Virus record (IMG/VR): IMGVR_UViG_2541047795_000003
Span: 1 to 49,802 of that record
Length of the DNA stretch: 49,802 nt
Strand: one strand, 5' to 3'
Source of the DNA: a virus
Lineage: Duplodnaviria; Heunggongvirae; Uroviricota; Caudoviricetes
Made by a program: the position numbers. This document shows, piece by piece, positions 3,001 to 6,000 of the stretch (position 1 is the first letter of the stretch; each line of letters starts with the position of its first letter).

Positions 3001-6000
3001 TCGTAGCGAAGGGCATCAGGCTGTTTGCGCATTGATGCCGAGATACGCTTCCAGTCTTCGCGGTCGTTGTCGATAACTTCATTTTTTGCCCAGCGATGGA
3101 TGCTGCCGTCAATGTTTCCGGCATCCACATCACCAGGCCAGAGAGCGTAGGCCAGTTCGTCATCCAGTGTTTTCCATGTCTGCTTGTATTCGCGATGAAT
3201 GGCAGCAATGACCGGGTTGATTTTTCCTGTTGAATTTTCAGTGTGCTGTTGATTGGCTCTGGCGCGGGCGAGATCAACAACAGACGTGTATTTTCCGGTT
3301 TCCTTGCGTTCATTTTCGCGACGTTTTTTCCAGATGCGCATCTCTGCCTGAATTTCGGGCCATTTGGCACCAGGCTTACATTTATGCTTAACCCACCCGA
3401 TGGCATGCAGCTTAAGCTCCGGATACATGGCGTTAACTTCTGGCATTTTCATCAACGCTTCAACGATATGTCCGTCGAATGTTGCCATGTCTTCCTGCAA
3501 CAATTCCTGCGCGCTAATCACCATATCAACGGTGATGTTTTCACATGTGTCGAACTTAACCATGACAGCGTTCTGTACTTCAGGGGCCAGCTTGTCAAAA
3601 GTGACGTTCATCGGATCTGATTCAGTCTCAACCGGGACAAAGGAAGCAGACGCCTCATCCCAGCGGTTTTCCTGCATATATTCAGCATCCCAGGAATCTA
3701 GGGCAGGGCGGGGTATACCGGGTTTATCCTCGCAGACAAGAAATTTATAAGCGCAGTCCTGAGCAGCCGGATAATGTTCCAGGAATTGCCAGTGAAATTT
3801 TGCGCGGGCGCGACGTTCATCACCGGCTTCAATGGCAGTGGCTACAGCGACGGCACCTTCTTCCTTTATTGCCTGTTCGTCCGGAATGGCGGCGCAAATA
3901 AAGACTTTACTCATTTTGTTTTACCTCATTACAGATTTAAGGGTGAACAAATCCCTGCCATTGCTGGCATATAAAAATGAAACTGGATATTAATTACGGC
4001 GCTGTTTTTAATCCTGCCGGGATTTCGTTATTGTCCATGTGAATAACTTTATCGACCGGATAACAGTTGCCGGGAATTTTCTGTTCCGCTGCGGCAGCCA
4101 TGCATTCTTTCATTGAGTTGTACATGCCGGTGATTGCATCAAGCGACTCACCAGTATTGAGATGTACAGTCAAAATGAGTACGAATAATGTGTTCATCGC
4201 CACTCTCCGAAAATACCGAGTTTAAGAAGGGCAATTCTGGAGAGTATGGAATTGTCATTCAGCAGGTAGGGTTCATATTTTCTCATATTGATTGCATCCT
4301 CGGTGAAATCCCTGTTACTGAGCAGAACACCAATATTAAAGCACCCGTCAGACGTATTAACGTTTGGTAGTGACGTTTCCATTATCGCGTCCTCAACAAT
4401 GAATTTTTAGCAATTGCTCCACAGTCATATTTTTAATTGCGCTCCGGTTTACAAGAGTCCATCCTTGTTTCTCCAGATAAAACCGGAAGGTATCCAGGGT
4501 GCAGACCATTGCGTCGTCAGGAACGGTTTCAGTGAATTTGATATTGCCGTGTTCGTCGAGACGGATAACCAGGGTGCGTCCGTCCCCGTGAATCATTTTG
4601 TCGGGAGACGGGGCGTTATTCTGGCGCAGTTCTGCTTCCATGCGGTCGAACTCAGCAATGTATGCCTCTTTAAATGCAGCGGCTTTTTTGCCAGTGAAGC
4701 CCATCACCAGGAAAACGAAGCCGTTTTTGGTGATTTGGTACATTGGGAGTTTGCGCCCGGTTGAGTCGGTGTATTCGCTTGACACAAAATTGTGCTCAGT
4801 GAATTTTGCTGAACAGTCCAGATTGCGAATTTTATCCAACACTCGTTCGTGGCGTTTGCCAAAGAACTCGGCGATCGCAACAGACGTAGTGACAGCGCGA
4901 CCATTTTCGATGGTTACGTCAGGGTGAGAAAGGGTAAGGATAGTAGCCATGATGGCAGCCTCCGCGATGAATTTGATTAACTCACCACCGAGGTTTTCCA
5001 CGACCATAAGGGTGGTGAGACGTACAGGGGTGGAAATACCGGTCATCACGGAACCCGGCCAGCCTTGCGGCTGCCCTGCACGCCCCACCATAATGCGAAT
5101 GTGGCTGTGCTTAACGCATAAAAAAACCGCCTGAGCGCGGTTATGCGCCGTGAATGATTTCGGGTTTCCACGCCCGGCACCCGTTTTATGAGGTGCAGGT
5201 GCACTATAATTCCACCCGTTCTGGTTTTCAATAGCTACATTCAACATTTTCTCTACCTTTCATCACCGAAGTGAACTTTGTTGATGCGGTGCCTGGTGCC
5301 TCCAGGTGACGTTAACCAGTTAACAATTAACGTCGGATACAGAGCATTCCCGTTACGCCCGTAAAAGACCGCTTGTTTTAACTGTTCCGCGTGCGCTGAG
5401 CCGCATTCACCGCATCACAAAATTCACTTTAAAAAGGGCGGCAGAGCAGTCACGGAGTAGAACTGATACCGCCAAAAGTCACCAGAAAATTGATAACAGA
5501 GGGCGTTGCAGCGGAGTTGTCACTTAAGCGTATGGTCAACCTGACAACCCGGTGTCCTCAACGGGGGAAGGAATAACCCCGCCATACTTACCGCCGCGCC
5601 ATTTCGCGGATTGCCACAACCGGAAGCGCACGGTCGACGAAAATTTAACGACAGGCTATCTATGAACCAGCTACCTCACCGAGCGCTTTCGCGTTATGGT
5701 CTGACTTTTCAGGGAAATATCCTTTCAGTAAACTGTCAGTGCCGGATGCTCACCCGTGTCCGGCGCACGCACTCCACCTCACCCGTGGAGAACTCCTTAA
5801 TCACCAACCCTCAGGAGGGTGAAATGTCGACTGAAAATGATGAAATCATTAACTCCCTGATACGCCAGATTAATAATTTTGATAAAGCATTGCAGCATGC
5901 TGCGGCGCGTAGTGATATAACTCTTTTAGCAATTTCATTTCTTGCATCTGTTATGGATAAAAATGAAGTCGTACGACAGAGTCTTGTTGATTATATCGAC

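Follow-up and report, generated by a model that had tools for sequence, protein, structure and literature searches.

A probable IsrK/C4-type RNA switch over a Rha-family gene in the dicBF operon of a Qin/Rac-like prophage

Introduction

The dicBF operon of the Qin prophage in Escherichia coli K-12 (ydfABC-dicF-dicB-ydfD-ydfE) is among the closest described counterparts of the locus that we analyze here, a dicBF-type early-left operon in a lambdoid prophage deposited as IMG/VR virus record IMGVR_UViG_2541047795_000003. The DNA under analysis comprises positions 1 to 49,802 of this record, and this whole 49,802-nucleotide (nt) stretch is referred to throughout as the window. Many different prophage contexts harbour operons of the dicBF type, of which one genome can have several copies, and a region of the small RNA (sRNA) DicF pairs with the ribosome-binding site of ftsZ (PMC5069750).

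Two other systems, the immI region of phage P1 and the isrK module of Gifsy-1, bear on a segment of the window that lies between dicF and dicB. Citron and Schuster reportedly described, in 1990, a layout for c4 of P1 and P7 that consists of sites a1/b1, a'/b' and a2/b2, with b2 lying over the ribosome-binding site. The c4 antisense RNA of P1 immI controls icd-ant, in which the division inhibitor gene icd is co-transcribed with ant (PMC8198154). In Gifsy-1 the short RNA IsrK acts in trans to open a read-through isrK-orf45-anrP transcript for translation (Hershko-Shalev et al. 2016, PMC4825925), and the C4-like part of this transcript, STnc1160, is a stable RNA that is processed from it (PMC4825925). 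Additionally, short repressors of the DicA and Gifsy types are inactivated by antirepressors and not by RecA-mediated cleavage, an example being Rem for DicA (bioRxiv 10.1101/2023.04.14.536235).

An arrangement that brings together IsrK, C4 and DicF is not described in the searchable literature. We find that the dicBF early-left operon of this Qin/Rac-like prophage probably holds an RNA switch of the P1 immI and Gifsy-1 isrK type that would govern a Rha-family gene. All components belong to known families, and their placement between dicF and dicB is ordinary lambdoid modular exchange. We describe the boundaries of this cassette, the covarying RNA sites that it contains and the genes that surround it, and compare the locus with the three systems above and with related modules in other lambdoid phages.

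Results

A cassette absent from K-12 Qin lies between dicF and dicB

Comparison of the window with K-12 Qin by blastn resolves three collinear blocks, together with one cassette that has no counterpart in K-12:

6992-6400: ydfABC, 96% DNA identity to K-12
5809-5272: dicF region, 93% DNA identity to K-12
4407-3148: dicB-ydfD-exonuclease, 87% DNA identity to K-12
4408..5271, minus strand: cassette of 864 bp without counterpart in K-12 (blastn against K-12 Qin), holding a promoter, IsrK, a C4-like RNA, a Shine-Dalgarno sequence (SD), an AUG and the Rha open reading frame (ORF)

Collinearity with K-12 is interrupted by exactly two extra blocks, 6399-5810 (590 bp) and 5271-4408 (864 bp), the latter being the cassette. 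In K-12, dicF and dicB are 174 nt apart with no ORF between them, so a reading of the window made from its sequence alone (hereafter the sequence-only reading) was correct in stating that the arrangement departs from that of K-12. It had also proposed that a Rha gene is inserted between dicF and dicB; the insertion is present, although what has been inserted is not a bare Rha gene and is instead an IsrK/C4/Rha cassette with its own promoter. One end of the cassette lies about 25 nt upstream of ATG 5247 and the other within the conserved dicB leader. Its junctions fall at two similar motifs, CAAAGTTCA and AAAATTCA, both of which resemble the single K-12 copy; recombination between lambdoid modules takes place at short linkers of this kind. 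The Rha stop codon falls within that leader, with 10 nt between it and the dicB AUG, and a terminator scan of the region found no terminator between Rha and dicB. The identities of these elements, their coordinates and the boundaries of the insertion are thereby established.

We surveyed 5426 complete E. coli genomes for these arrangements. The K-12-type direct junction of dicF with dicB is found in 3776 of them, whereas the window-type arrangement, defined as at least 80% of positions 3900-5700 in one place, is found in 270 (about 5%); the full-length cassette in any context occurs in 394. These counts bear on an explanation in which the prophage carries a plain Rha gene with an unrelated terminator and simply keeps an ancestral intact locus, from which K-12 Qin has lost Rha by decay. 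Qin is indeed defective, with an IS2-truncated exonuclease gene and a partial int, and the window prophage looks complete. However, the dicF-dicB-ydfD segment of K-12 is undamaged, the direct junction is present in 3776 genomes as against 270 with the cassette, the second terminator is that of IsrK with a C4-like RNA coming next, and the module has its own conserved promoter. Additionally, the same cassette is present in early-right operons of Stx phages, ST64B, mEp460 and a Hafnia phage, and precedes kil in ST95-32. We regard loss by decay as very improbable. The sequence-only reading had described the locus as an intact version of one decayed in K-12, which is true of the exonuclease-xis-int part and untrue of dicF-dicB-ydfD, since the latter is intact in K-12. 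Given that direct junctions are in the majority, that the boundaries are sharp and coincide with a repeated leader motif, and that the phage contexts differ, the cassette appears to be an added module, better read as a minority mosaic addition than as an ancestral part lost by K-12.

In ST95-32 (L003, 2530-3645) a cassette that is 84% identical lies downstream of DicF and is followed by the division inhibitor gene kil, not by dicB. Upstream of the cassette in ST95-32 and KTa008 (L003 and L006; 2416-2499), PGAP annotates a duplicated 84-bp dicB 5' fragment as a pseudogene, 'DicB, missing C-terminus'. We do not accept this fragment as DicB: its translation of 28 codons does not resemble the protein, and K-12 has the same DNA upstream of dicB; the call is probably an annotation artefact of over-extended DicB entries.

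IsrK-like and C4-like RNAs with covarying pairing sites

The part of the cassette that precedes the Rha start codon contains the following features:

5203..5231, minus strand: sigma-70-like promoter TTGAAA-17-TATAGT, ending 7 nt before IsrK (10/12 matches, a consensus-level match)
5120..5196, minus strand: IsrK-like sRNA (Rfam RF01394, 67.7 bits; gathering score 50)
5142-5125, minus strand: stem of the IsrK intrinsic terminator, followed by a U-run (terminator scan)
5171-5165 (a1, GUGGAAA) and 5158-5148 (b1), minus strand: target-mimic sites in IsrK (pairing and covariation)
5008..5095, minus strand: C4-like antisense RNA (Rfam RF01695, 81.9 bits; gathering score 45)
5053-5043 (loop b', UUCCGUGAUGA) and 5036-5030 (single-stranded a', UUUCCAC), minus strand: segments of C4 exposed in the predicted fold
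5001-4995 (a2, GUGGAAA) and 4970-4960 (b2, UCAUCGCGGAG), minus strand: C4 target sites on the mRNA (complementarity to a' and b')

The cassette promoter is the best promoter-like site across positions 3900-7800, and its hexamers occur at the same position in all 14 homologous cassettes, including that of Gifsy-1. The sequence-only reading had noted a second minus-strand terminator at 5117-5147; a terminator is present there, and its being the terminator of IsrK had been missed. The C4-like RNA folds with an energy of -47.3 kcal/mol (z=-4.4) into a long closing stem with two inner hairpins, and is the predicted equivalent of Gifsy-1 STnc1160, P1 c4 and P4 CI. Its b' loop complements both b1 in IsrK and b2 on the mRNA, while a' complements the motif GUGGAAA twice, once in IsrK and once downstream. 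The b2 site overlaps the SD, GGAGG (4963-4959), of the Rha AUG at 4950.

To follow these sites among relatives we used an alignment of the window with 13 other cassette copies drawn from E. coli prophages, Stx1 and Stx2 phages, Salmonella ST64B, mEp460, a Hafnia phage and Gifsy-1 (alignment A1). The isrK-C4 tandem was also found in the 12 other copies that were scanned with Rfam, the Gifsy-1 copy having been aligned and not scanned. No parts of this alignment vary more than the a and b sites, yet these change together. For example, there are four a-site specificities (GUGGAAA, UUGCUAC, UUGGCGU and (G/U)UCGCAG), each of which is present in IsrK, complemented in C4 and repeated downstream. For b' with b2, 92% of cells are in standard pairs as compared with 33-51% in slid controls, in which the partner was displaced by 1-3 columns, and 8 of 11 pairs show compensatory changes. 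For b1 with b' the values are 95% as compared with 32-49%, with compensatory changes at 7 of 9 pairs. Such changes join sites that are up to about 190 nt apart. The SD and AUG at 4963-4948 are nearly invariant.

Duplex energies give a similar picture. The b' x b2 duplex of the window has 11 bp and an energy of -17.0 kcal/mol, and the mean loop-only energy of b' with b2 is -15.4 kcal/mol for cognate and -6.9 kcal/mol for non-cognate combinations; at each of the four site pairs, the stability of cognate duplexes exceeds that of non-cognate ones by about 4-8.5 kcal/mol. The a'-a2 pair was assessed with the energy matrix and by direct reading of the alignment, and not by column covariation, because a 3-column gap misaligns a2 between specificity groups. 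Whole-molecule RNAduplex calculations (C4 against IsrK or the mRNA, and DicF against ftsZ) were dropped as uninformative because they ignore intramolecular structure and shuffled controls score nearly the same; loop-only duplexes and column covariation were substituted for those involving C4. These comparisons establish that the promoter and terminator are conserved and that the RNAs are complementary to one another at covarying sites.

The conservation of the cassette also bears on whether it could be an inert recombination leftover with no regulatory effect on the prophage or on dicB. Decayed modules are common in prophage mosaics, but every element of this one is intact (promoter, terminator, C4 fold, four target sites, SD and AUG, and the full Rha ORF), and the 394 genomes that retain it at full length do so with 84-100% identity. 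Moreover, the a and b sites of the window are mutually complementary, whereas unselected decay would be quick given how variable these sites are between phages. An inert remnant is for these reasons highly unlikely.

As a separate observation, E. coli MINF_1A (L004) carries tandem IsrK-C4 cassettes (2345-2533 and 3001-3189) whose a and b sites differ in specificity. An 'ash family' ORF is fused to the one and a Rha ORF to the other, beside a LexA-family repressor.

The Rha gene and the long 'Ash' reading frame

The coding part of the cassette consists of one gene:

4393..4950, minus strand: Rha-family protein of 185 amino acids (aa), a putative antirepressor (Pfam Phage_pRha PF09669, 4.9e-31, 107.6 bits; cut-off 29.9)

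This confirms the Rha-family gene that the sequence-only reading had placed at 4393..4950. The protein also matches TIGR02681 (108.7 bits; cut-off 45.95), with an N-terminal Rha domain and a C-terminal part that matches PHROG 'anti-repressor' families. Upstream of its AUG, the Rha frame remains open to ATG 5091, an orf45-like start, and beyond that to ATG 5247, the start of a 284-aa PGAP model (5247-4393). AUG 5091, the counterpart of the first start of orf45 in Gifsy-1, shares the Rha frame, and no stop separates the two; the same is true of 13 of 14 homologs, a separate ORF being present in Gifsy-1 only.

It could accordingly be argued that the true gene is this 284-aa 'Ash + Rha' form, and that the isrK and C4 matches reflect conserved coding with no RNA control. 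The long form is matched by Pfam Ash/Phage_ASH (2e-16, residues 14-109) and by PHROG 995 over all 284 aa. Of the 14 diverged homologs, 13 have no stop in the Rha frame over IsrK and C4, the exception being Gifsy-1, while stops in the two remaining frames average about 2-4 and vary in position; several phages have an ORF that extends another 300-400 nt upstream and abuts the preceding gene. However, substitution rates at codon positions 1, 2 and 3 are equal throughout the leader (0.28/0.26/0.25 in IsrK, 0.26/0.25/0.29 in C4 and 0.47/0.52/0.50 in the spacer), which is not the pattern of a constrained protein. As there is no third-position excess, a constrained 'Ash' domain is unsupported. The supposed 284-aa ORF would also have to accommodate many compensatory changes between sites about 190 nt apart, a conserved promoter and an intrinsic terminator, and the nearly invariant internal SD and AUG. 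Gifsy-1, furthermore, has stops in the Rha-equivalent frame, and its RNAs have been detected experimentally. We consider a purely coding explanation improbable and conclude that the 'Ash' part appears to be primarily RNA-encoding and not a constrained protein domain. The two views are nonetheless compatible insofar as the leader may be translated without amino-acid constraint, and ribosomes may traverse the IsrK/C4 leader.

In the window (4951-5247), as at the 13 homologous loci of alignment A1, the 'Ash family' N-terminal region is a translation of the IsrK and C4 sRNA genes. Many annotations of an 'Ash family protein' probably hide IsrK/C4 RNAs.

A candidate translational switch upstream of dicB

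The covariation, together with the precedents of P1 and Gifsy-1, leads us to read the cassette as a translational switch. From its features we infer how the RNAs would be expressed and processed, in which direction the regulation would run, what activity and target Rha would have, and that dicB would be co-transcribed. The cassette promoter, which looks constitutive, would yield a short IsrK-like sRNA that stops at the intrinsic terminator. Read-through from this promoter, or transcription from further upstream, would give a transcript that contains the C4-like RNA, whose b' and a' segments would pair with b2 and a2 on the mRNA, masking the SD of Rha and blocking its translation. The mimic copies a1 and b1 in IsrK would compete for the C4-like RNA or remodel the leader, such that Rha translation is turned on. 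Rha would then counter the short prophage repressor, as an antirepressor or as another type of regulator, and the early operons, with DicF, DicB and YdfD among their products, would be derepressed. By read-through the cassette promoter would serve dicB and ydfD as well: there is no terminator between Rha and dicB, and transcripts passing the IsrK terminator should therefore continue into dicB-ydfD.

A bolder extension of this proposal, which we ourselves hold to be doubtful, is that module shuffling has placed an RNA-gated, repressor-independent promoter in front of the toxic dicB-ydfD pair, recreating the c4-icd-ant design of P1 from unrelated parts, and that passage of ribosomes through the leader is itself part of the switch. 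The latter is suggested by a leader that is stop-free in the Rha frame in 13 of 14 homologs and yet shows no codon periodicity. If this extension were true, DicB and YdfD would be expressible from the cassette promoter without full derepression of the prophage.

DicF, DicB, YdfD and the exonuclease

The genes that flank the cassette are these:

5436..5487, minus strand: DicF sRNA, with a terminator U-tail to 5431 (Rfam RF00039, 71.5 bits, gathering score 48, E=6.9e-14, full model 1-52)
5272..5435, minus strand: conserved, K-12-like dicF-to-dicB spacer upstream of the cassette (within block 5809-5272, 93% K-12 identity)
4194..4382, minus strand: dicB, encoding a putative cell-division inhibitor of 62 aa (Pfam PF05358, 1.3e-32, 111.7 bits; cut-off 27)
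3994..4197, minus strand: ydfD-like gene, 67 aa (Pfam DUF1482 PF07358, 2e-19, 69.6 bits; cut-off 25; PGAP start)
1422..3914, minus strand: exonuclease of 830 aa (Pfam PF16473, 1.4e-67; PHROG 2082)

The sequence-only reading had recognized DicF with its terminator at 5431-5488 and a 62-aa DicB-like protein at 4194..4382, and both assignments are borne out by family models and by alignment to K-12. DicF is downstream of ydfC in a dicBF-type operon, collinear with K-12, and is identical to K-12 dicF at 51 of 53 positions. Of the two differences, G12U is in the 5' single-stranded arm and U29C in an internal loop. The Rho-independent terminator (a GGCGG...CCGCC stem followed by U5) is identical to that of K-12, the predicted fold is the same, and the CUCCG core that is complementary to GGAG of ftsZ is intact. 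DicF is expected to act here as it does in K-12 by masking the ribosome-binding site of ftsZ.

The DicB protein is 64% identical to K-12 DicB (35/55) and also matches NCBIfam NF049927 (103.4 bits; cut-off 100), and the K-12-like leader and SD of dicB begin directly at the Rha stop. From family membership we assume that it would inhibit division in the MinC-dependent manner of K-12 DicB. The YdfD-like protein is 67% identical to K-12 YdfD (42/63) and is likewise expected to cause lysis. A YdfD-like gene had been proposed at 3994..4203; its identity stands, while its start must probably be moved, ATG 4197 being likelier than GTG 4203 because it overlaps the dicB stop as ATGA (4197-4194), as in K-12. 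DicF, DicB and YdfD are by all appearances ordinary orthologs of the K-12 genes.

The exonuclease has a Rv2179c-like 3'-5' exonuclease domain at its C-terminus. Its N-terminal 256 aa are 96% identical (247/256) to the K-12 ydfE pseudogene, which stops at the IS2 junction, and past this break point the window protein runs on to 830 aa. It is the full-length counterpart of K-12 ydfE, as the sequence-only reading had also suggested. A 21-nt repeat that encodes NSPNALQ (about 2320-2365, exonuclease codons about 525-538) is present in two copies in the window and in one copy in the chromosome of E. coli Ecol_316 (NZ_CP018957).

Prophage context

Over its first 11.7 kb the window matches the Ecol_316 chromosome with 99.8% identity, the differences being 4 mismatches and one 21-nt gap; the NSPNALQ repeat is the sole indel across these 11.7 kb, and positions 3900-5700 are 100% identical. 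The prophage is lambdoid and Qin/Rac-like, its integration site adjoins ompW, and it carries int, xis, a Q antiterminator, lysozyme/lysis, terminase, portal, capsid-protease, tape measure, J and tail-fibre genes, such that it looks complete by gene content. On the minus strand the order is repressor, ydfA/B/C homologs, DicF, cassette, dicB, ydfD, exonuclease, xis and int, which agrees with the leftward early operon between the repressor and exo/xis/int that had been proposed from the sequence alone. The immunity region is Rac/Qin-like, with a short repressor followed by divergent cro-like and YdaT-like genes. The repressor candidate is as follows:

7219..7638, minus strand: prophage repressor candidate of 139 aa at the DicA position (PHROG 5736 transcriptional regulator, 6.4e-70)

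Its C-terminus has a weak match to DicA, far under the cut-off of that model. The 139-aa protein has no Pfam match and hence no detectable peptidase or cleavage domain. It is probably non-cleavable, and presumed to be the target of an antirepressor.

The second block that is not in K-12 (5810-6399, 590 bp) is located between ydfC and the dicF leader. It contains a 106-aa ORF on the minus strand (6397-6077; PHROG 6937, function unknown) and, on the opposite strand, a PGAP-annotated 91-aa ORF (5824-6099) with no family match, 3' of which is a plus-strand terminator-like hairpin (6125-6147). This block may be an antisense-oriented moron within the early-left operon.

Other RNA genes are located elsewhere in the window. 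The Q antiterminator (16803-17624) and a DNA methylase gene (18199-19248) are followed downstream by two tRNA genes (19298-19370 and 19381-19454) and two copies of the STnc100 sRNA (19721-19914 and 20190-20378); this interval, 19298-20378, is the place of the toxin genes in Stx phages. In the nin-like region an Rfam match to the sok antitoxin RNA (14598-14769, 106.7 bits) indicates a hok/sok-type module.

Discussion

Strength of the proposed switch

Several observations weigh against the proposed switch and its consequences. As the Rha frame has no stop across C4 and IsrK in 13 of 14 homologs, translation from an upstream start could bypass or modify the antisense control, and an Rfam scan and frame check of the window found neither a separate orf45 nor IsrJ. 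Rha was considered as an ortholog of Gifsy-1 AnrP and rejected, the N-terminal domains being Rha and ORF6N, respectively, with weak C-terminal similarity (E=0.001). The PHROG annotations of Rha-domain proteins are mixed, including transcriptional regulators as well as antirepressors, so that antirepressor activity is a guess. No LexA box (CTGT-N8-ACAG) occurs anywhere in the window, and LexA control of the cassette or of the prophage was rejected on this ground. Finally, the U29C difference in DicF removes one predicted A-U pair beside the core that masks the ftsZ SD, and the whole-molecule duplex of DicF with ftsZ (-36.9 kcal/mol, as compared with -38.5 kcal/mol for K-12) barely exceeds that of shuffled sequences (mean -31.8, standard deviation 4.3), so that these energies argue neither for pairing nor against it.

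On the other hand, a short repressor that has no peptidase domain, the precedent of DicA-type repressors and the lack of a LexA box together make an antirepressor role for Rha plausible.

Implications for annotation and for dicBF regulation

These findings do not challenge current understanding, and their main value is for annotation and for studies of dicBF regulation. About 5% of complete E. coli genomes have two additional sRNA genes and a putatively regulated Rha-family gene between dicF and dicB, and annotation conceals both sRNA genes under one long 'Rha family' or 'Ash family' coding sequence. Consequently, what has been found in K-12 for the transcription and processing of dicB downstream of DicF need not transfer to strains with the cassette. 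The covariation constitutes a computation-only confirmation of the P1-type two-site antisense logic in IsrK/C4 modules of Stx and other lambdoid prophages, and the many distinct specificities should be useful for predicting cross-talk among co-resident prophages.

Comparison with known systems

Relative to the K-12 Qin dicBF operon, the window has the same gene order and orientation, and its repressor is likewise short and at the DicA position without being a close homolog of DicA. The two differ in that the exonuclease, xis and int genes of the window are full length with no IS2, whereas the exonuclease and int of K-12 are decayed, and in that the window has the two extra blocks of 590 bp and 864 bp and a site beside ompW.

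The isrK-orf45(STnc1160)-anrP-isrJ locus of Gifsy-1 has a promoter, IsrK and C4-like leader that are homologous to those of the window, with an ORF for a phage regulator or antirepressor downstream in both. Three-way complementarity is also common to both, with UUGGCGU/ACGCCAA in Gifsy-1 and GUGGAAA/UUUCCAC in the window. However, Gifsy-1 has a separate 45-codon ORF coupled to anrP while in the window that frame continues uninterrupted into Rha, AnrP has an ORF6N domain where the window protein has a Rha N-domain, and IsrJ is found in Gifsy-1 only. The loci are also placed differently, that of Gifsy-1 adjoining the Q antiterminator and that of the window being in the early-left operon upstream of dicB.

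In P1/P7 immI, as in the window, a C4-family RNA (RF01695) comes from the same transcript as its target. The window shares with P1 the presence of upstream and downstream site pairs, a b2 site over the ribosome-binding site and a specificity that varies among relatives. An antirepressor-type product with a co-transcribed division inhibitor is a further likeness, the inhibitor being icd in P1, dicB (as predicted) in the window and kil in ST95-32. This likeness to P1 may simply be a consequence of the location of division inhibitors within early-left operons. Rha, DicB and the repressor of the window have no relationship to Ant, Icd and C1 of P1, and whereas the upstream sites of the window belong to an sRNA with its own terminator, IsrK, those of P1 do not.

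The Stx-converting phages, ST64B, mEp460 and related lambdoid phages have IsrK and a C4 leader that are 68-81% identical to those of the window, followed by ORFs with Rha domains or 'Ant' ORFs. In most phages the cassette adjoins replication genes in the early-right operon, and in those just named it is flanked on its other side by cII or roi, while the cassette of the window is located between dicF and dicB.

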